A stretch of DNA of 64,000 bases from Candidatus Kerfeldbacteria bacterium (GTDB taxonomy: Bacteria > Patescibacteriota > Patescibacteriia > SBBC01 > CAIJZX01). This document shows positions 1,602 through 35,520 of this stretch, piece by piece (within the stretch, counting starts at the first letter, position 1; the number at the start of each line of letters is the position of its first letter). The position numbers were made by a program, and so were the translations under genes. Where the stretch lies: positions 270,106 to 334,105 of the forward strand of contig CAVSWO010000002.1 of the NCBI GenBank assembly GCA_963731735.1. Reading direction: 5' to 3'. Below the pieces are notes generated by a model that was not told the DNA's origin, made no database searches, and saw only the letters and a program-made list of their open reading frames with translations.

Positions 1602-2846
1602 TCAGTTTTTTGCCTGTCCTGAGTCGGTCTGGATCGCCTCGGCTAACCGCTGGAGCGCGACGATGTATGCTCCGGTTCGTAAAGACACTTGGTGCCGCTG
1701 CGCGGCTTGCCAGGTTTCGTCGAAGGCGGTGGTCATGATGGGTTTGAGTTTTTCCCAAACTTGCTGCTCGGTCCAGCGCTGGTTCTTCATATTCTGCTCC
1801 CATTCAAAATAGGATCCCGTCACGCCGCCGGCATTGGCTAAAATATCTGGCACGACATGAATTCCTCGTTCATGCAGAATCGTATCAGCTTCAGGCGTGG
1901 TTGGGCCATTGGCTAATTCAATCACCGCCGCGGCTTTCACGTCCGGGGCGTTGGTTTTGGTCAGCACGTGTTCGAGCGCGGACGGAATCAGCAAATCAAC
2001 CTCCAGCTTTAGGAGTTCATCATTGTGGATACTGGCTGTCCCATCCAATCCGGTTACGCTGCCAGTGGACTGCTTGTGCGCCAGGATCGCGGCGATATCC
2101 AGTCCATCCGGTTGATAAATGCCGCCGCTTGAATCGGACACTGCCACAACCTTGAAGCCATCGGCTTGTAAGATCTTGGCCGCAAAGGCGCCGACATTGC
2201 CAAATCCCTGAATCGCTACGGTTGTTCCACGCGGAACACGATTGAGTTTTGTCAGTAATTCCTGAATTATATAGACGCCGCCCTGGCTGGTTGAGGTTTC
2301 GCGTCCGGCGGAACCACCCTGATCGATCGGTTTGCCGGTAAAGGCCGCCGGCGTCGGTTGGCCCGCCAAACGGGAATATTCGTCAGTCATCCAGGCCATA
2401 ATTTCCGGCGTGGTATAGACATCCGGAGCCGGGACATCAACCGTCGGTCCGAGATTCGGATACATGGCTTGCACCCATCCGCGTGCTAACCGTTCGAGTT
2501 CGGTCTTCGAAAGATCGCGTGGATTCACGGTCACCCCACCCTTACCTCCGCCGTAGGGAATGCCAACCACCGCGGTTTTCATGGTCATCCAAAAAGCCAG
2601 GGCTTTAACCTCATCAATGTTTGTATCCGGATGAAAACGGATCCCGCCTTTATAGGGACCGCGGGCATTATTGTGTTGCACGCGGTAGCCGGTGTACACC
2701 TTGGTTGAACCATCGTCCAACCTGACCGGAATGGAAAGCTCAATCAGTCGCTGGGGCTGCGACAAAATGTCGAGCACACGCGCGTCAAGTTTCATGACCG
2801 CGGCGGCGGCTTGGAATTGGGCTAAAGCGGAAGCAAAGGGTTGCAT
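1602..2846 (-). CDS. gdhA: NAD(P)-specific glutamate dehydrogenase
   Basis: KGGIRFHP and GGGKGG Glu/Leu/Phe/Val dehydrogenase signatures. The start is at MQPFAS (the ATG at 2846), giving about 415 aa. Confidence 0.9.
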   Translation of the reverse strand: MQPFASALAQFQAAAAVMKLDARVLDILSQPQRLIELSIPVRLDDGSTKVYTGYRVQHNNARGPYKGGIRFHPDTNIDEVKALAFWMTMKTAVVGIPYGGGKGGVTVNPRDLSKTELERLARGWVQAMYPNLGPTVDVPAPDVYTTPEIMAWMTDEYSRLAGQPTPAAFTGKPIDQGGSAGRETSTSQGGVYIIQELLTKLNRVPRGTTVAIQGFGNVGAFAAKILQADGFKVVAVSDSSGGIYQPDGLDIAAILAHKQSTGSVTGLDGTASIHNDELLKLEVDLLIPSALEHVLTKTNAPDVKAAAVIELANGPTTPEADTILHERGIHVVPDILANAGGVTGSYFEWEQNMKNQRWTEQQVWEKLKPIMTTAFDETWQAAQRHQVSLRTGAYIVALQRLAEAIQTDSGQAKN

Positions 2847-2850
2847 AGTT

Positions 2851-3834
2851 TTATGAATTTGTAGGTTGTTGATGACGAAAGGGCGTCGTAACGCCCCAGT
2901 CCACCACGCCGCCCCGACCGAGACGGCCCAGTGATTGAAAGTATGTATAGAGTCCAAGTGCGGCCTTGGCGCCTTCGCCGGCCGAGATGACGATTTGCTT
3001 TTGGGCGATTGTGGTCACATCACCAGCCGCGTAAAGGCCGGGAATATTGGTGGCGTTCGTTTGCGGATCGACAATCACCTGACGTCGAGCATCGTGAGCG
3101 GCTAAGTGTTCAGCCAACTTCGAATGCACCACATATCCAATTTCCACGAAAACACCGCTGACATCAATCGAATGCTTGGCGCCTGCTTGTTCATAGGTCA
3201 GGCCCTCGACTGCAGTTTTCCCTTCAACCGATAGCGTCTTGGCTCCCAAAGCGACGGTCACCTTCGCTTCTGCCAATGTCCGTTCAATCAGGACGCGTTC
3301 GCCGCGAAGTTCAGTGTGATGGGTCAGCAACGTAACCTGATTATCAGCGGCTAGTAGGAGGGCCGCGTCCATTGCGCTGTTCCCGCCCCCCACTACAGCC
3401 ACCCGTTGCTGATGAAATTTCGTGGCGTCGCAACTGGCGCAATATGAAACACCCTTGCCAATCAATTGGTCTTCTCCCGGTACATCAAGGTGCCGGTGCG
3501 AAAGTCCATGCGCTAATAAGACGGCTGTGCTTTGATACTCCTGGTTCCGAGCTTGGACCTGAAATCCCTGAGAATTTTTTTCAATGGCGTACACCTCGTC
3601 AATCACGACCCGGGCGCCATCTCGTTCGGCTTGCCGCTGCATATTTTTCATTAACGCCAAGCCGTCGATGTGATCAATCCCTGGATAATTTTCAATTTTT
3701 GCGGTGGTGGCTGCTTGACCGCCGATGTCCTGTGAGATCACTAGCGTCTGTAGGCCGCGCCGGGACGCAAACAACGCCGCCGTTAAACCAGCGGCGCCGC
3801 CGCCGACGATAATCACGTCGGTCGTTTGACTCAT
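2851..3834 (-). CDS. trxB: thioredoxin-disulfide reductase
   Basis: N-terminal FAD motif IIVGGGAAG, redox-active CASC (SYCASCD) and the second dinucleotide motif VVGGGNSA. The start is at MSQTTDV. Confidence 0.9.
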   Translation of the reverse strand: MSQTTDVIIVGGGAAGLTAALFASRRGLQTLVISQDIGGQAATTAKIENYPGIDHIDGLALMKNMQRQAERDGARVVIDEVYAIEKNSQGFQVQARNQEYQSTAVLLAHGLSHRHLDVPGEDQLIGKGVSYCASCDATKFHQQRVAVVGGGNSAMDAALLLAADNQVTLLTHHTELRGERVLIERTLAEAKVTVALGAKTLSVEGKTAVEGLTYEQAGAKHSIDVSGVFVEIGYVVHSKLAEHLAAHDARRQVIVDPQTNATNIPGLYAAGDVTTIAQKQIVISAGEGAKAALGLYTYFQSLGRLGRGGVVDWGVTTPFRHQQPTNS

Positions 3835-4157
3835 CCGGTGTGTTTGGCTAGTTCGGATTGTAGGGCCTGTTTCTGGTGAACACCGATACCCTGCCAAACC
3901 ATTTGTCCGTGCTTAAATATTGCCAGGGTAGGAATTGAAAGAACATTGTACTGCCCGGGGACGGTCGGATTTTCGTCAACTTCCATTTTGACAAATTTAA
4001 CTTTGTCACCCATCTCTTTCGAGAGTTCATCGATTATCGGGCCCTGAATTTTACACGGTGTACACCAGGTAGCCCAAAAATCTACTAACACTGGAACTTG
4101 CTGTTCTTCCAGCACCTCCGACTTGAAATTTTGATCGGTACCGACAATTTCGGCCAT
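3831..4157 (-). CDS. trxA: thioredoxin
   Basis: The WCTPCK active site within a thioredoxin fold, 108 aa. There is a 4-nt overlap with trxB. Confidence 0.9.
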   Translation of the reverse strand: MAEIVGTDQNFKSEVLEEQQVPVLVDFWATWCTPCKIQGPIIDELSKEMGDKVKFVKMEVDENPTVPGQYNVLSIPTLAIFKHGQMVWQGIGVHQKQALQSELAKHTG

Positions 4158-4175
4158 AGACTTTTCTCCTTGTGG

Positions 4176-4427
4176 CTAGGTCGCCTTAGTAAACAAAGAA
4201 GTTAATTTAGCAATGTCATCCGGTGTGACTGTCCGGTTCTTTCGAATGCGTTCAAGCTCACGTTGGAATATTAGCGAAGCAACGTTTTCAATGCCAGCCC
4301 GTATAGCACTGACTTGCGTCAGGACATCGCTGCACGGTCGGCGATCATTCAACATCTGCTCAACGGCTTCAAGTTGTCCAACCAGTCGATGAATTCTTGC
4401 CCCCAGTGTACGGGAAGATTTTCGCAT
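4176..4427 (-). CDS. CsoR/RcnR/FrmR-family (DUF156) transcriptional repressor, single-Cys variant
   Basis: The N-terminal LxxRLxRIxGQLxAVxxML and RRPCSDVLTQVSAIRAG core are typical of CsoR-family four-helix repressors. Only one Cys is present and the C-terminal His/Cys ligands are absent. Confidence 0.75.
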   Translation of the reverse strand: MRKSSRTLGARIHRLVGQLEAVEQMLNDRRPCSDVLTQVSAIRAGIENVASLIFQRELERIRKNRTVTPDDIAKLTSLFTKAT

Positions 4428-4436
4428 ATATGCACA

Positions 4437-4457
4437 ATATACCCCCTGGGGGTTTAT
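4437..4457. promoter_or_regulatory. C5/G5 palindromic operator (ATATACCCCCTGGGGGTTTAT) upstream of the CsoR-like gene
   Basis: A near-perfect inverted repeat with C- and G-tracts lies 10-30 nt upstream of the start codon at 4427. It resembles known CsoR/RcnR-family operators. Confidence 0.55.
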
Positions 4458-4543
4458 GTCAAGTCGATCGTTTTAGTGTCGTTAAATGTTAACTGAAATA
4501 TAACAGCATTGTTCCACGGGGAACAATCAGCCAAAAAAACCCT

Positions 4544-4618: not shown

Positions 4619-4713
4619 AAGTGTTAGGTTTTCAATGTTCCTCGCGGAACATTTTATATATTATGAATGTTCCACGAGGAACAATCATAAATATCTTTAA
4701 TTTTTCTAAATAT

Positions 4714-5181: not shown

Positions 5182-7863
5182 TTGCGTGGCTTACTAACCG
5201 CCGCAAAAAAATTGTTGCATTCAGTCGTTCGCTGGAGCAGCCCTTTCTGGCATCACATCCTACGATGGTCGTCACGATTGGGATTTTTAGTTACCTTAGC
5301 TTTCGCAAAAGCGGGGATTGCAGTTTTGCAATTTGTTCTTGAAACACCCATTTACCTTCGGCATTATCCAACACGCTCTTTTGAAATTCTGGCATTACGT
5401 GATCAGTCGCAAAGTTTTCTTGAATCGTATTCTCTCCATTTACGGAAATACCGTCTTTCAATTTTAGTTACGCTTGGGCTGTTTATTGTATTGATGGGGC
5501 AGCTTTTTGTATTTGGTTACGGTGTCTATCGAGCAGGCAGGCCAACTCAGGTCATTGCCCAAACCAATGTTGTGACACTAACTGATGTCTGGGACAGAAC
5601 TGGAATAAAAAATGAGCCATGGACGTTTGATGGATTTGGATGCGTGTCGGGAACTACGACATTCAGTTGTGAAGCTGATAATACTCGGCTGCTTGCCAGT
5701 TTTTCAAATAACTCAAGTGGTGGAACGGTTTGTCCCGCTACAGATAGTTATCGACGTAGTGGCATGCAATTTTCATTATCTAGCATTCCGAACGCGGCAA
5801 TTATTACAAAGGTTGAATTGCTCGTCACCGTTTTTGATCCCAGTGCAAATTCTATTTCAATTGGACGAAGCACGACTGATAATGGTAGTGGTTTAAGTTG
5901 CGCATCTTTTTATAATGACTTCTTGGCGAACACGTACATAACCACTTCGACTTTTTCAACCGCCGTTGCGAAGACACTAGATTTAGGTGCAACCGCAAAA
6001 ACTGATGTTCAATCTCGTCTCAATACCACAGATGCCATATCAATTTCTTTTGGAAATACGGGGACTGATAGTGTTACGCTTGATTCATTAGAAACCGCAA
6101 ACCCGCCACAGCTTCGCGTCACCTACACATCCGCCCCGTCTGCTCCGTCTGCCCCATCCGTTTCGAGCAGTACCTCACACAGTATTACCTGGAGTTGGAC
6201 AGATAACGCCACCGAAGAAACCCAATATGACCTCCATGACGGCTCGCATCAAGCCGTTTCCGGATGCAGCGCCCTACCGGCGAATTCAATAAGCTGTACA
6301 GAAACCGGACTATCGCCCAATACCAATTATTCTCGTCATGTTCAAGTAACGGATCCGATTGGCACGACCGAAGGGGGCAGCGCGTCCGGATACACGGCCG
6401 CCGCTGATCCGGCGGTAACAAGTGATCGCTCGACCGCGACCTGGTATACGTCGGGGGCTTTCACCTTTTCCAATGCGGCTGCCTGGGGCGCGGGGGGCGT
6501 AGAGTATTATCGCTATGTTTGGAACACATCGTCCACCTTTGCATTTACTGGGAGTGAGTCAACCTGGAGCTCCCTCGATGCAAATTGTCCTGGCGGAACG
6601 TGCGATGTATCCGGCACAAGTTTGCCATTGACCACCAACACGGATAGTCCGAGTTGGTATCTTCACCTCCAGAGTTATAATGGGAATGACCAAGCGGCAA
6701 CTAGCCAATCTTTTGGTCCATATTATTTCGATAGTACCGGTCCAACCGCGCCCAGCAACATCAATGACGGAACGGGCGCTGATATTGACACTACCACAGC
6801 AACGTCACAACTGAGCGCCAACTGGACGGCGGCTAGTGATGTGGGTTCGGGACTTGATCACTATGAATATGCTATCGGCACCAGTGCCGGCGGAACACAG
6901 GTCAGTGCCTTTACCAGTGCCGGAACAAATACCACCGTCACAAAAACCGGATTAACGCTCAACGTCGGAACAACGTATTATTTTTCAGTCCGAACCGTTG
7001 ATACCGCCAGTAATGTCAGTGCCACTCAGAGCAGTGATGGGGTTACCGTTGTGGCTAGTACCGCATCGCCATCCACGCCCGACTCCTCCATAAGTACGCC
7101 GACTATATCCAGTCCGAGTGATGGACAGTCAGTCAATGAACCATACCCAGAGATACGCGGTAGCGGTCCAAGCACCGCTGATATATTTATCGTCGTTGAT
7201 CGAGTGATCAATGTGGTCGTGCGGGCAGATGCGAGTGGAAATTTCAGCGCCCGATTACAATCACCGTTGGTTGAGGGTTCGCACGCCGTGTTTGTTCGAG
7301 CGCGAGTCGGGAGCAACGTCAGTCCCGAGTCGTCACCCATTACCGTCATCCGATCAGGTGGCGGAATTCCGGTCACAATTCGTCATCGATATATTACTGA
7401 CGGTACGAATCCGTCCGTCACCTTTGAGGGTGTGGCTCCCACGAACTCCACGGTCCAGATCCTACTCGATGAAAGTATTTATCAAACATTTTTTGCCGGA
7501 CCTTCGACAACTACTGCCTATGGTTTTTTGAAAACCGTGACCGTGCCCGATAACATTGCCGCCGGACAACACACGCTGAGTTTTATTGCGATTAATGCCA
7601 ACGGAAAAGCCAGTTACGAAACCGGCCAAACGACGTTTACTAAATCCTCGTCGGTGGTGGATGCGCCAGACATCAGCTATAGCAACGCCTCAGAATATGT
7701 TGTGCAATCCGGAGATTCGCTTTGGAGTATTGCTGCAAAATTTTTGGGTGATGGACAAGCTTGGCCGCAAATCCAGCAAGCGAATGAGGCCCAGTATCCC
7801 AGCCTGACAACTCAACCACACCTTATATATCCAGGTTGGGTGCTCCATATACCTTCCGGCTAA
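5182..7863 (+). CDS. large membrane-anchored surface protein with FN3-like repeats and a C-terminal LysM domain
   Basis: N-terminal TM segments, an SAPSAPSAPS linker with S/T-rich FN3-like modules, and a C-terminal LysM (YVVQSGDSLWSIAAKFLGDGQAWPQIQQAN). The true start is uncertain. Confidence 0.7.
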   Translation: MRGLLTAAKKLLHSVVRWSSPFWHHILRWSSRLGFLVTLAFAKAGIAVLQFVLETPIYLRHYPTRSFEILALRDQSQSFLESYSLHLRKYRLSILVTLGLFIVLMGQLFVFGYGVYRAGRPTQVIAQTNVVTLTDVWDRTGIKNEPWTFDGFGCVSGTTTFSCEADNTRLLASFSNNSSGGTVCPATDSYRRSGMQFSLSSIPNAAIITKVELLVTVFDPSANSISIGRSTTDNGSGLSCASFYNDFLANTYITTSTFSTAVAKTLDLGATAKTDVQSRLNTTDAISISFGNTGTDSVTLDSLETANPPQLRVTYTSAPSAPSAPSVSSSTSHSITWSWTDNATEETQYDLHDGSHQAVSGCSALPANSISCTETGLSPNTNYSRHVQVTDPIGTTEGGSASGYTAAADPAVTSDRSTATWYTSGAFTFSNAAAWGAGGVEYYRYVWNTSSTFAFTGSESTWSSLDANCPGGTCDVSGTSLPLTTNTDSPSWYLHLQSYNGNDQAATSQSFGPYYFDSTGPTAPSNINDGTGADIDTTTATSQLSANWTAASDVGSGLDHYEYAIGTSAGGTQVSAFTSAGTNTTVTKTGLTLNVGTTYYFSVRTVDTASNVSATQSSDGVTVVASTASPSTPDSSISTPTISSPSDGQSVNEPYPEIRGSGPSTADIFIVVDRVINVVVRADASGNFSARLQSPLVEGSHAVFVRARVGSNVSPESSPITVIRSGGGIPVTIRHRYITDGTNPSVTFEGVAPTNSTVQILLDESIYQTFFAGPSTTTAYGFLKTVTVPDNIAAGQHTLSFIAINANGKASYETGQTTFTKSSSVVDAPDISYSNASEYVVQSGDSLWSIAAKFLGDGQAWPQIQQANEAQYPSLTTQPHLIYPGWVLHIPSG

Positions 7864-7867
7864 CCGA

Positions 7868-7896
7868 TTGACACCGAGCCACGAGGCGCCTACACT
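7868..7896 (+). promoter_or_regulatory. sigma70-like promoter TTGACA-17-TACACT upstream of the bactofilin gene
   Basis: A consensus -35 and a near-consensus -10 with 17-bp spacing. It is followed by a 7-2-7 palindrome CTGTACTAGAGTACAG (7904-7919), a possible operator. Confidence 0.5.
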
Positions 7897-7943
7897 AGAA
7901 CCGCTGTACTAGAGTACAGTCTTGATTTCTATCATTTTCGTGT

Positions 7944-8336
7944 ATGGCGATTTTTCAGCGCGACGGCGCCGACCAGGGAACAGATAAAGAAACAATTATT
8001 GGACCAACCGTCAAAGTCGACGGGAATTTTGTCGGAGCGGGCAACGTGATGGTTGAGGGTCACGTCTCCGGTAGCCTGAAGACCAGCAAAGATTTACGGA
8101 TCGGCGAGGGCGCCACACTCAAAGCCGATATTGAAGCCGCCAATATTTTTTTGGCGGGTGAAGTCCGCGGTCAAGTCAAGTGCCATGGCCGACTAGAGAT
8201 CGCAGCCACCGGAAAGATTTTTGGCAATGTCGATACCAAGACCATCGCGATCGCGCATGGGGCGGTCATGCATGGGAAAGTTACGATGGCGGCCGAAGGG
8301 CACCCGGCGCCGAAGAAGTCCTCCGAGCCAGAATAA
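7944..8336 (+). CDS. bactofilin (polymer-forming cytoskeletal protein)
   Basis: Beta-helical DUF583 repeat pattern: VDGNFVGAGNVMVEGHVSGSLK...IFLAGEVRGQVKCHGRLEIAATGKIFGNVD. Confidence 0.8.
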   Translation: MAIFQRDGADQGTDKETIIGPTVKVDGNFVGAGNVMVEGHVSGSLKTSKDLRIGEGATLKADIEAANIFLAGEVRGQVKCHGRLEIAATGKIFGNVDTKTIAIAHGAVMHGKVTMAAEGHPAPKKSSEPE

Positions 8337-8341
8337 TTTCG

Positions 8342-9085
8342 ATGTACGCTTACCTGGTTGATAACCTGGGTCAGGATCGGCATCTCCAAGCCGAATTGTT
8401 TAAGGTTGAGGCCCGGTTAGCACAACTCGGTATTCAAGGACGAACGGAAAAGATCACTATCCTGAAAAATTTAGTCGAGTCGGCGCGGGATGCGGTTCGA
8501 CGCGGGGCAACAACCATCGTGGCCATTGGTTCCGATGCCACAGTTATCAAACTCTTACCGGTCGCGATTGAAGAAAATGTCTCGCTCGGGATTATTCCTT
8601 TGACGGCGCCATCATCGCTGGCCGAGTACCTGGGGATTCCGTTCGGCGCCGCTGCTTGCGACGTTTTGGCGCGTCGGATCGTGCGGCGCGTCGACGTTGG
8701 TAAAGCCGATAATCAATATTTTTTACGGGAAGCGCGGGTTGAATCCCGGACCCCGGTTGAATGTGACGGCGCCTACACGATTTCCATTGAAGATCCCCAG
8801 GCGCATATCGTGATTGGCAACCTCGGGCCAAACGATAGTCACGGCCAACCAACGGATGGGCGGCTGGAATTGCTTGTCCAAACCGACGCCGATTCCGGTT
8901 GGCCGTTTCGAAAATCTCAGGGCACCCAAAGCAGCGTCATTCCGATTCGGACGGCTAGCCTCAAAGGCAAGTCGGCTGACACATCCTTACTGCTTGATGG
9001 TGAGGTACTGGTCAAGGGCGCCACCACCATTGAGGTAGCCAAGAAAAAACTCGGTATCATCGTCGGCCGCGATCGGAAATTTTAA
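8342..9085 (+). CDS. DAGK_cat/YegS-like lipid kinase family protein
   Basis: The TTIVAIGSDATV segment takes the place of the GGDGT motif. The fold pattern is that of a diacylglycerol-kinase catalytic domain. The start was taken at MYAYLV after the bactofilin stop. Confidence 0.5.
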   Translation: MYAYLVDNLGQDRHLQAELFKVEARLAQLGIQGRTEKITILKNLVESARDAVRRGATTIVAIGSDATVIKLLPVAIEENVSLGIIPLTAPSSLAEYLGIPFGAAACDVLARRIVRRVDVGKADNQYFLREARVESRTPVECDGAYTISIEDPQAHIVIGNLGPNDSHGQPTDGRLELLVQTDADSGWPFRKSQGTQSSVIPIRTASLKGKSADTSLLLDGEVLVKGATTIEVAKKKLGIIVGRDRKF

Positions 9086-32550: not shown

Positions 32551-35520
32551 ATGCCTATGTTTATCAAAGCACGAACGGCCTGGCGCCGAAAATCTCTCCG
32601 TCAGCGCACCTGGCGAGCGTTGAATATTCTGGCCATGGCCGCCCTGGTCTTACACTACGGCGCCTTTGTTGCTTTGGCTCCGCAATCTGCGCAAGCCGCG
32701 AGCGGCAGTATCTGGACTACTACAAGTTCCTGCGGGTCGCCGCAAAACGTCAACCAATACAACGTCGGTGAGACGGTTTACATTCATGGAGATGGCTTTC
32801 CTCTGGGAGATTATGATTGGGCCATCACCGGTTTGCCAGGCCAGGCCTCAACTGATCCGAATATTGACGTTGCCTCATCCATCTTGGCGGGTTCAAAATT
32901 TCATGTTGATGCTTCCGGACAGTTTTGTTTTGATGCTTACGAAATTCAAGTTGGCGATTCCGGCGAGTATCAAGTAAAATTCGAAAATGTTAAAGGTGAC
33001 AATCTTCATATAAAGGGTGATTCAAATGACCCCCAGGGCGGCGAAGACCCTCTCTACAATCTGCATGGATACAAGTGGAATGACCTGAACGGGAATGGCC
33101 AGCGAGATTGCCAAATCTTCGACCAGGCCGCGTCAGTAGTGAATGATTCCTGTGAACCGTTGCTCGGCGGCTGGACGATCCAACTCTGGCAGAATGAACA
33201 AAAGGTCGATGAAATGCAAACCTGCTCACTGGCTGATACCCAGGATGAGAAAAACGCTTGCTTTGGTCATGAAGTCGGCTGGTACTGGTTCATGAATTTA
33301 CCGGCCGGCGACTATACGATTTGTGAAGTCCCGCAGGCCGGTTGGACGCAGACCTTCCCGGTCGATCCGAACTGTCATCAGGTATCGCTCCCGAATGATT
33401 TACCGCAAACGGAAAATGCGGTCTTGGCGCCGGAATACAACTTCGGCAACCACCAAGACCAGTGCCGCCCCGGCGCCTCCTGGGCTGAAACCGTCGTGGA
33501 TGCAAGCCAGGGTACGCTGAAGAACGGTAATCCAATCACCGACAGTGCCCGGACTGACCCGAACGCGGCGCTCGGGGCCGCCGATTTTCCGGCAGCGGGC
33601 AGCTTCTTCAGTCTCGGTCAGAATGGCTGGATCACACTGGGCTTCAATCACCCCGTGCTTGATGCGCAAGGCGATGATTTGTCTTTCCACGAAGCGACGA
33701 ACGGGCGCAATGCGTACCCGAATGCGTACCCGCTTGAATCAGCGCTCGTGCAGGTAAGTCAGGACCTGTCAGAATGGAAAGATGTCGGCACGGTAACCAG
33801 CGAACCCGGCGGTGACGGCGTCATGACGCTCGACTTCAGCGGCACCGGGTACCAGTGGATCAAATATGTGCGCCTGTCTGATACCACCAATTACGCCCTC
33901 CATCAGTCGACGGCGGACGGCTACGATCTCGACGCAGTCGATGCCACCTATGAAATGTGCGCCAGTGGTTCAGTTGAGGGCTACAAGTGGCATGATCGGA
34001 ACGGCAACGGGGTTTTGGATAACGGCGAGGAACCGATGGCTGACGTCCGCATTCAAACCCTCCATGGGTTATTCGATGTGACTGATGCCAATGGCTACTA
34101 TCGGATTGACGCGATCCCAGTCGGCACTGAATCCATCATCGAATTTACCCCGGATGGCTGGTTCAACACTAATCATAATAACGTGGCTTTCGACGTCCCG
34201 ATTACGGCCAATCAAACGACTCGCGTCGACTTCGGCAACTACCAAAAATCCTCAATCAGCGGCATGAAGTTCAACGACCTGAATGGAAACAGTCAGAATG
34301 ACGAAGAACCGGGACTGGAAAACTGGACGATCACGCTCTGGAAGTGGAATGACTATCTCGGCCAGTACGCCGAAGAAGCCCAAACCACCACTGATCAAAA
34401 CGGGCAATACACGTTTAGTGATTTAGTGCCGGGTAAGTACCAGGTTTCCGAGGAACAACAAGCTGGCTGGACACAAACCTTTCCGGTTGGCAGCGGTCTG
34501 TACGATGATATTCAGCCGCTGTCTGGCGAGCAGCTGACCGGCTATGACTTTGGCAACTATCAACGGCCACAGATTGTGACCGAAGGTGCGCCGGATCTGA
34601 ACATCACCAAAACCAATGATGCCGAGACCTTCGTGAATCCCGGCGATACCGTTGGCTACACCGTGGCTGTAACAAATACCGGCCTGGCGACCGCCTACGC
34701 GGTCAGTTTAACGGACACCCTGCCGGATGGTTTCAGTTTCGTGAGCGGGTCAGCAAACATCACACCGGATTCAACCGTCGGGCAAACCACTAGCTGGAGC
34801 CTGGGCGACATCGATCCCAACCAAACCGTCACCGTCACTTATAACGCGACCGTGGACGATAACGCAGCCGCCGGAACCTATACCAATACGGCTACGGCCA
34901 GCACCAGTGTTGAACCCCAGGTGCTTGAGGAGTCTGCCCGAGGGTTTGGTGAATTACGCGCCGCCACCGTCGGACCGGTGGCTACGCCCGGCACCCAAAC
35001 CGTCAGCGTTACGGCCAGCTCGGACGTGTCGGTCCATGTCCCGCGAGTCTTGGGAGAACAGGCCAACCCGGAACTCACGCTCACCAAAGTTGTTGACCCA
35101 AGCGTCACCAACCCGGGTAAAACCGTGACCTATAGCGTGGTCGTTGAAAACATCGGACAAGCCGATGCGGTCAATGTCGTTATCATTGACACCCTACCGG
35201 GTGGGCTGACCTATGCCGATACCGGCGACCAGAGTCGGACCTGGACCTACGATGTGCTCGGCGCCGGTGAGTCAAAAATTTTGACCTTCCCCGTTAAAGT
35301 CAGTTCCTCGATCGCGGCCGGCGATTACGTCAACACGGCCAAGCTCACCGCCGACAACAACGATCCGCTAACTGCCAGCGCCAAATTGACCGTCAAAGTT
35401 CCGCAGGTACTCGGCCTGGCTGACACGGGCGTCGGACCACGCGACTACCTAATTTTCAGCTTCGGTCTGCTGAGCCTCATGTCGTGCTTCGTCCTGCTGC
35501 GACGGCAGACTCGCGCGTAA
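32551..35520 (+). CDS. cell-wall-anchored surface protein with SdrD-B/CnaB-like and DUF11 repeats and an LAXTG (sortase E type) sorting signal
   Basis: Signal peptide ending AQAAS. Repeats GYKWNDLNGNGQRD, GYKWHDRNGNGVLDNGEEP and GMKFNDLNGNSQNDEEP. DUF11-like LTDTLPDGFSFVSGS and VIIDTLPGGLTY. C-terminal LADTG followed by a hydrophobic stretch and an RRQTRA tail. Confidence 0.75.
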   Translation: MPMFIKARTAWRRKSLRQRTWRALNILAMAALVLHYGAFVALAPQSAQAASGSIWTTTSSCGSPQNVNQYNVGETVYIHGDGFPLGDYDWAITGLPGQASTDPNIDVASSILAGSKFHVDASGQFCFDAYEIQVGDSGEYQVKFENVKGDNLHIKGDSNDPQGGEDPLYNLHGYKWNDLNGNGQRDCQIFDQAASVVNDSCEPLLGGWTIQLWQNEQKVDEMQTCSLADTQDEKNACFGHEVGWYWFMNLPAGDYTICEVPQAGWTQTFPVDPNCHQVSLPNDLPQTENAVLAPEYNFGNHQDQCRPGASWAETVVDASQGTLKNGNPITDSARTDPNAALGAADFPAAGSFFSLGQNGWITLGFNHPVLDAQGDDLSFHEATNGRNAYPNAYPLESALVQVSQDLSEWKDVGTVTSEPGGDGVMTLDFSGTGYQWIKYVRLSDTTNYALHQSTADGYDLDAVDATYEMCASGSVEGYKWHDRNGNGVLDNGEEPMADVRIQTLHGLFDVTDANGYYRIDAIPVGTESIIEFTPDGWFNTNHNNVAFDVPITANQTTRVDFGNYQKSSISGMKFNDLNGNSQNDEEPGLENWTITLWKWNDYLGQYAEEAQTTTDQNGQYTFSDLVPGKYQVSEEQQAGWTQTFPVGSGLYDDIQPLSGEQLTGYDFGNYQRPQIVTEGAPDLNITKTNDAETFVNPGDTVGYTVAVTNTGLATAYAVSLTDTLPDGFSFVSGSANITPDSTVGQTTSWSLGDIDPNQTVTVTYNATVDDNAAAGTYTNTATASTSVEPQVLEESARGFGELRAATVGPVATPGTQTVSVTASSDVSVHVPRVLGEQANPELTLTKVVDPSVTNPGKTVTYSVVVENIGQADAVNVVIIDTLPGGLTYADTGDQSRTWTYDVLGAGESKILTFPVKVSSSIAAGDYVNTAKLTADNNDPLTASAKLTVKVPQVLGLADTGVGPRDYLIFSFGLLSLMSCFVLLRRQTRA

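Follow-up and report, generated by a model that had tools for sequence, protein, structure and literature searches.

A single-cysteine CsoR-family protein as the predicted autorepressor of a thioredoxin and glutamate dehydrogenase operon in Candidatus Kerfeldbacteria

The 64,000-nt stretch of Candidatus Kerfeldbacteria DNA analysed here (contig CAVSWO010000002.1, positions 270,106 to 334,105; hereafter the window) encodes an 83-aa protein of the CsoR family (gene at 4176-4427, minus strand; Pfam PF02583, Trns_repr_metal or DUF156) directly ahead of thioredoxin genes. Sequence comparison supports placing this protein among CsoR-family regulators with the X cysteine only, outside every characterised W-X-Y-Z class, and equally supports the palindrome in its promoter as a genuine operator, conserved and of the type usual in the family, with binding predicted. 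There is good support for regarding the protein as an autorepressor, whose operator would occlude its own promoter and thereby control trxA, trxB and gdh; control of the thioredoxin genes by the repressor is probable. The explanation as a whole, an autoregulated repressor of a trx-gdh operon that works as a one-cysteine thiol switch reset by thioredoxin, is in our judgement somewhat better than an even bet.

The protein matches PF02583 over residues 7-77 with an E-value of 1e-14 (55.1 bits vs a cut-off of 22.8). An AlphaFold2 model of the single chain, built on 63 relatives, has a mean predicted local distance difference test score (pLDDT) of 91 and contains three helices (residues 8-27, 32-64 and 69-82). 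The top 18 PDB fold matches all belong to the CsoR/RcnR family (InrS, FrmR, CstR and CsoR) at template-modelling (TM) scores of 0.6-0.71, with InrS as the best match by sequence and fold together. The DNA-binding residues R11, R14, Q18 and R43 are present, as is the signature RxxK/R...GQ. The N-terminus reads MRKSSRT, and the sole cysteine, Cys32, lies within RRPCSDVL, flanked by R30 and by an acidic residue at position 34 (Asp or Glu among close relatives, Asp34 in the window protein).

Gapless HMMER alignments to four solved structures, those of InrS (5FMN), S. pneumoniae CstR (7MQ1), Geobacillus CsoR (4M1P) and CsoRGz (6AHX), align Cys32 with the X cysteine, Glu57 with Y and Ile61 with Z. 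The Y position is otherwise held by His in metal sensors and by Asn55, the "wedge", in CstR, and the W position of RcnR, InrS and FrmR would lie ahead of Met1 in the window protein. The x-C-H-C ligand set of Cu(I)-CsoR is broken by Glu57 and Ile61. The H-C-H-H and H-C-H-C sets of RcnR and InrS, with their W His, are broken as well, there being no His at Y or Z. FrmR is characterised by Pro2 with the X Cys, His at Y and a neighbouring frmA gene, a combination that the window protein does not reproduce. The x-C-x-C dithiol pair of CstR is reduced to its X Cys, the Z Cys being absent, and the downstream genes are trxA, (trxB) and gdh rather than the sulfurtransferase, persulfide dioxygenase, SQR and sulfite exporter genes that CstR-type regulators control. 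The first-pass annotation, made from the sequence without database searches, had already described a CsoR-family protein with the X-position Cys in RRPCSDVL that lacks the Y and Z ligands and matches neither the Cu, Ni, formaldehyde nor persulfide signature. The alignment that it had proposed bears out this description in full and adds one point absent from it, namely that Y carries an invariant Glu and is not simply empty. Two further arrangements were rejected. His13 was ruled out as a ligand by helix register, as it sits in the middle of helix alpha1. Family structures are antiparallel, with the X cysteines at opposite ends of the dimer, and on this geometry an intra-tetramer Cys32-Cys32' disulfide was discarded.

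The C-E-x signature extends well beyond the window. A profile search retrieved about 95 proteins at E-values of 1e-37 to 1e-22, followed by a gap to 4e-12, and by sequence these make up a discrete subfamily of about 89 non-redundant members with identities of 40-75%. This clade is visible with a profile query alone: a single-sequence search returned 3 relatives only, and a full HMMER representative search returned mostly generic C-H-C proteins. Its taxonomy rests on few NCBI-named members, all of them Candidatus Kerfeldbacteria (Patescibacteria); the closest named relatives of the window glutamate dehydrogenase (GDH) are also Kerfeldbacteria. In 89/89 sequences X is occupied by Cys and Y by Glu, while Z is Leu, Met, Ile, Thr, Arg or another residue, with Cys or His there in 0/89. 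The invariant positions are S5, R6, T7, A10, G17, Q18, M25, R30, C32, L36, Q38, A41, G45 and E57, and a second Cys is sporadic: three sequences have one at position 59 and five have one at position 66. The SRT motif (S5-R6-T7) is specific to the clade and is preceded by 4 to 14 residues. The nearest relatives outside the clade are ordinary C-H-C proteins and a few C-E-C proteins with a shared FQRE motif (e.g., P0013), and the comparison suggests that the clade derived from a dithiol sensor through loss of the resolving Cys. Omnitrophota loci L001 and L002 (24% identity, from a single-protein contig scan) are without the clade motif and were not used.

A promoter scan identified TTGACA-17-TATTGT on the minus strand at 4462-4434 (-35 hexamer TTGACA, 4457-4462; -10 hexamer TATTGT, 4434-4439). 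Its spacer is filled by a 21-bp palindrome at 4437-4457, which also extends over the final base of the -35 hexamer and, with its right arm, over the first three bases of the -10 hexamer. This palindrome reads ATATACCCCCTGGGGGTTTAT on the plus strand and ATAAACCCCC-A-GGGGGTATAT on the minus strand, and its left arm has one mismatch to the family consensus (ATAAAC, not ATATAC). The exact core, ACCCCCNGGGGGT, occurs once in the 64 kb and in 0 of 100 shuffles. Chance alone would account for the near-matches at 33029 and 39624 (2 mismatches each), which were not accepted as operators. The -10 hexamer lies only 6 nt from the repressor ATG (4427). Since a start 7 nt downstream of the -10 hexamer would fall on the A of this ATG, the spacing predicts that the repressor mRNA is leaderless; no fitting Shine-Dalgarno site lies ahead of the repressor ATG, unlike that of trxA. 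Upstream of the repressor are three tRNA genes (a tRNA-Ala/tRNA-Ala/tRNA-Arg cluster), and the hairpin/promoter scan found a terminator-like hairpin (4508-4527, minus strand) 3' of the tRNA-Ala, between this cluster and the repressor gene, which therefore has a promoter of its own.

Both the operator and its association with a promoter are conserved across 22 loci, comprising the window and 21 related loci. In 22/22 the element ATATAC-N9-GTATAT with a G/C-rich centre stands at the promoter, and in 22/22 that promoter is of the sigma-70 type, with a TTGACA-like -35 hexamer, a 16-18-nt spacer and a -10-like hexamer. The distance from the -10 hexamer to the start codon is exactly 6 nt in 13 of the 22. 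Three arrangements occur: the operator lies within the -35/-10 spacer, as in the window; it overlaps the -10 hexamer and abuts the ATG, in an "LNEEL" subclade; or it sits immediately upstream of the -35 hexamer (L022). The outer arms ATATAC and GTATAT are fixed while the centre varies between CCCCC-N-GGGGG, CCCCCC-A-GGGG and TCCCCCCCA or TGGGGGGGA (the last form in L007, L010, L011 and L019). None of the 2-10-kb loci contains a second operator, and neither does the 64-kb window. The earlier identification of the palindrome as a typical CsoR-family operator is thus strengthened by its unique core in the window and its recurrence at all 22 loci.

Six co-directional genes occupy the minus strand of the window, in the order csoR-like, trxA, trxB, gdh, CoA_binding_2 and RNase HII, and 1602-4460 covers gdh through the csoR-like gene with its operator. 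The repressor stop is followed, after an 18-nt gap containing an AAGGAG Shine-Dalgarno site, by trxA (3831-4157; thioredoxin, 108 aa, active site WCTPC; PF00085, E=6e-28). The trxB gene (2851-3834, true start ATG 3834) overlaps the trxA stop in an ATGA junction and encodes a low-molecular-weight thioredoxin reductase of 327 aa with a CASC redox centre, assigned by Pfam and by PDB matches, the best of which are thioredoxin reductases (E about 2e-54). The start of gdh (1602-2846, ATG 2846; 414 aa, Glu/Leu/Phe/Val dehydrogenase family, PF00208 and PF02812) is 4 nt past the trxB stop. The ATGA overlap and the 4-nt gap indicate co-translation in the window.

Beyond gdh the case for a single regulated unit weakens. 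A 37-nt gap (1565-1601) separates gdh from the CoA_binding_2 gene (1118-1564; 148 aa, PF13380, E=9e-34), the end of which is overlapped by rnhB (505-1167; RNase HII, PF01351). This gap contains a promoter-like TTGATT-17-TAGACT, 6 nt ahead of the CoA-binding ATG, and the CoA-binding gene is probably under this site of its own. Among related loci, the gene directly downstream of the repressor encodes a thioredoxin wherever the locus has enough DNA; trxB is present in most loci and absent between trxA and gdh in L017, L018 and L022; and gdh follows trxA or trxB in 9/9 loci whose gene table extends beyond trxA/trxB. The CoA-binding gene is variably spaced or missing in relatives, and in L003, L017-L019 and L021 rnhB is located farther downstream, at distances that differ between loci. 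From these variable distances and the promoter-like site we take the regulated core to be repressor-trxA-(trxB)-gdh, with rnhB probably outside it despite the conserved synteny. The first-pass annotation had placed the repressor first in a tight run of six genes; its leading part stands as a conserved csoR-like-trxA-(trxB)-gdh unit, and it is doubtful that the regulated transcript extends to the CoA-binding gene and rnhB. Genes upstream of the repressor vary by locus and include tRNAs, a hydrolase, a spermine-synthase-like gene and a giant fn3 protein, and copA or copZ was found neither in the window operon nor in the 11 annotated related loci.

We infer from these data a circuit in which the reduced repressor, presumably a tetramer, would bind the single ATATAC-N9(G/C tract)-GTATAT operator and block RNA polymerase, and so repress a leaderless transcript for repressor, thioredoxin, thioredoxin reductase and GDH. 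The sensing site would be pared to Cys32, the "attacking" X cysteine, opposite the invariant Glu57 of the partner subunit (Glu57'), a geometry taken from homologous structures. Modification of Cys32 by peroxide or disulfide stress, by a low-molecular-weight thiol (S-thiolation) or by persulfidation, giving a sulfenate, mixed disulfide or persulfide, would lower the affinity for DNA and de-repress the operon. The induced TrxA and TrxB would then re-reduce Cys32 and close a negative feedback loop, with GDH possibly supplying NAD(P)H. Of the possible signals, such a reversible change at Cys32 (oxidation, S-thiolation or persulfidation), undone by the thioredoxin of the same operon, is the most likely. 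A one-cysteine thiol switch is the most economical reading because the metal sets are broken, Pro2 and the Z Cys are absent, and no metal, aldehyde or sulfide-detoxification genes are neighbours. The supply of NAD(P)H from GDH to TrxB is speculative, as the HRR of NADPH-dependent enzymes is replaced by THH in TrxB.

Several points weigh against this explanation. The HRR motif, which binds the 2'-phosphate of NADPH in the M. tuberculosis and E. coli thioredoxin reductases, is missing from the window TrxB, with THH in its place around residues VTLLTHHTELRGERV, and relatives carry TH[HN] or NKN at this site; TrxB may use NADH or another donor. CstR works through an inter-subunit di- or polysulfide bridge, for which one Cys per site is not enough, and we know of no one-cysteine oxidation switch demonstrated in the CsoR fold. 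Thioredoxin genes are often housekeeping genes, and the repressor might set a basal level only. Finally, the synteny comes from one Kerfeldbacteria-like lineage, and shared ancestry may explain part of the conserved gene order. In its strongest form, the proposal makes Cys32-Glu57' a true one-cysteine switch, possibly assisted by the clade-specific, invariant Ser5-Arg6-Thr7, that is oxidised or S-thiolated directly and reset by the thioredoxin under its control. The repressor would then make up, with TrxB and a GDH that generates NAD(P)H, a self-sufficient leaderless redox homeostat, perhaps among the few stress regulons of ultrasmall Kerfeldbacteria-like bacteria. We hold this form only tentatively and doubt it more than we believe it.

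Comparison with characterised systems shows where the window protein resembles and departs from each. CstR (S. aureus, E. faecalis and S. pneumoniae; PDB 7MQ1) has the same fold and family, no metal ligands at W or Y, and a reactive X cysteine between Arg(-2) and an acidic residue(+2). It is also an autoregulated repressor on a G/C-tract palindrome that responds to thiol chemistry, not metal, as proposed here. Unlike CstR, the window protein is without the resolving Z cysteine, which makes an inter-subunit di-, tri- or tetrasulfide bridge impossible, and has an invariant Glu where CstR has the Asn wedge; the clade targets trxA/trxB/gdh rather than sulfide-detoxification genes and occurs only in Patescibacteria-like genomes. 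FrmR (E. coli and Salmonella; PDB 5LBM and 5LCY) is, to our knowledge, the only characterised family member working with a sole attacking cysteine at X, the feature that it shares with the clade. The "type 1" site of RcnR and FrmR is TACT-G6-N-AGTA, and some relatives' operators (TACT-C7-AGTA), like the TCCCCCCCA/TGGGGGGGA form, resemble it. Unlike FrmR, the clade has no Pro2, His at Y or frmA neighbour, and with its variable N-terminus a Cys-to-Pro methylene bridge cannot be conserved. The Cu(I)-CsoR, RcnR and InrS sensors share the Pfam family, the three-helix protomer and the operator grammar, but their C-H-C, H-C-H-H and H-C-H-C sets are all broken in the clade; the clade also lacks the Tyr that Cu sensors have ahead of the Cys, and there are no metal-homeostasis neighbours.

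Outside the family, the one-Cys OhrR of B. subtilis is inactivated by sulfenylation or S-thiolation of its single Cys, and its two-Cys relatives would parallel the sporadic second Cys of the clade at 59 or 66. In Streptomyces, RsrA controls trxBA through SigR and is re-reduced by thioredoxin, a feedback logic analogous to that proposed here. These proteins have unrelated folds (MarR for OhrR, a zinc-binding anti-sigma factor for RsrA), so the resemblance would be one of circuit logic alone. A network study of the CsoR family describes Cu, Ni/Co, formaldehyde and persulfide clusters, with clusters 6-9 uncharacterised (PMC8643695). In the same study the CstR nucleophile is the N-terminal Cys, with R28 and D32 around the attacking Cys30; FrmR has a sole, attacking Cys; and the resolving Cys is poorly conserved in cluster-10 CstRs, some of which lack it (PMC8643695). 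Given the precedents of cluster-10 CstRs and FrmR, one-Cys chemistry in the CsoR fold is not unprecedented. In the literature searched, no paper was found on the C-E-x clade, on a CsoR-family regulator of trxA/trxB or on any CsoR-family protein of Patescibacteria, and nothing relevant emerged on CsoR proteins with a single Cys or on CsoR or FrmR of Patescibacteria.

Three other explanations were weighed. Of these, the one that we rate highest, though still as unlikely, is a special case of the thiol switch with the signal specified: a one-Cys sensor of persulfides (reactive sulfur species), in effect a CstR-type protein without its resolving Cys, whose Cys32 would be persulfidated in sulfidic habitats, with the induced thioredoxin system as the depersulfidase. 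The x-C-E-C dithiol proteins with the FQRE motif among the nearest non-clade relatives (P0013 and others), the CstR-like R30/D34 surroundings of the attacking Cys and the loss of the resolving Cys in cluster-10 CstRs (PMC8643695) all point this way, as does the reported reduction of protein persulfides by thioredoxin-like proteins in S. aureus (PMC6196236). Yet a sulfurtransferase, persulfide dioxygenase, SQR or TauE gene stands beside the regulator in 0/22 loci, the wedge Asn is replaced by Glu, and the Cys has no bridging partner.

A regulator without any signal, buffering a housekeeping trx-gdh operon and retaining Cys32 and Glu57 for structure, would suit the housekeeping functions of the operon, the absence of both a second ligand and a second Cys, and very small genomes with few regulators (a 0.82-Mb contig encodes a 100% identical GDH). 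We consider it improbable, as Cys32 and Glu57 are invariant in 89 sequences at sensory positions while Z drifts freely, and Cys-less members of the family exist (P0032 and P0040), which indicates that the Cys is not needed for the fold. Less probable again is an unconventional sensor in which Cys32, Glu57 and N-terminal residues bind a metal, or in which Cys32 reacts with formaldehyde to form an FrmR-like methylene bridge to the N-terminal amine. Every characterised non-sulfur member of the family responds to Cu, Ni/Co or formaldehyde, a single Cys suffices in FrmR, and E64 of Salmonella FrmR contributes to metal binding (PMC5016687). Against such a sensor, the clade lacks His at W, Y and Z as well as Cys at Z, and His13 is far from the site by helix register; with no Pro2 and 4 to 14 residues before SRT there is no fixed N-terminal amine, and genes for an efflux pump, metallochaperone or formaldehyde dehydrogenase occur in no locus.

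The W-X-Y-Z positions of the CsoR family are a textbook case of few residues setting signal specificity, and a clade outside the characterised classes with a fixed C-E-x signature and fixed thioredoxin targets is a natural experiment on a partnerless attacking cysteine. Gene regulation and the handling of oxidative stress in Patescibacteria are almost unknown, and this is among very few regulator/operator/target sets there that are legible from sequence. Were the proposed thiol switch true, the CsoR family would gain its first case of sensing by thiol oxidation, as distinct from persulfides or aldehydes; for a specialist the surprise is modest unless the one-Cys, thioredoxin-reset mechanism is demonstrated. 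The prediction is cheaply testable with an 83-aa protein, a 21-bp operator and the Trx/TrxR pair encoded alongside.

Several minor observations concern the gene models. A spurious plus-strand open reading frame of the window (4314-4496) translates the operator. The gene calls of relatives P0154, P0168, P0213, P0215, P0225, P0232 and P0235 start too far upstream and also translate it, so that IYPQGVY, LYPPGVY and IYPLGVY in these calls are operator-derived peptides in mis-annotated N-terminal extensions. The opposite error is seen in L003, where the deposited call P0003 (76 aa) begins 7 codons late; the full frame (2066-2317) is 83 aa and starts with MRRASRT at 2066, 6 nt past the -10 hexamer. 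The spacing between the -10 hexamer and ATG of the CoA-binding gene in the window is identical to that of the repressor gene. The TTGATT-17-TAGACT site thus points to another mRNA without a leader, and such starts may be frequent in this genome.

The window thioredoxin has WC-T-PC as its active site, and the relatives (L004-L023) show WC[G/T/Y/H/A]PC, with no fixed WCGPC; the variable residue could tune the redox potential. A 16-nt inverted repeat, TGTTCCNCGNGGAACA, occurs four times in the window (4510-4525, 4636-4651, 4668-4683 and 2223-2238; chance expectation 0.01). Three copies flank the tRNA cluster, one of them scored as terminator-like, and the fourth falls within the gdh reading frame and is translated as VPRGT; the copies may serve as hairpins for tRNA processing or termination, or may make up a small repeat family. 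Adjoining the operon, window positions 5182-9085 hold genes for a large LysM/fn3-like surface protein, a bactofilin and a diacylglycerol-kinase-like protein. The bactofilin and kinase genes recur in L017, L020 and L022, and the large LysM/fn3 protein only in L020, which shows long-range synteny within the lineage.

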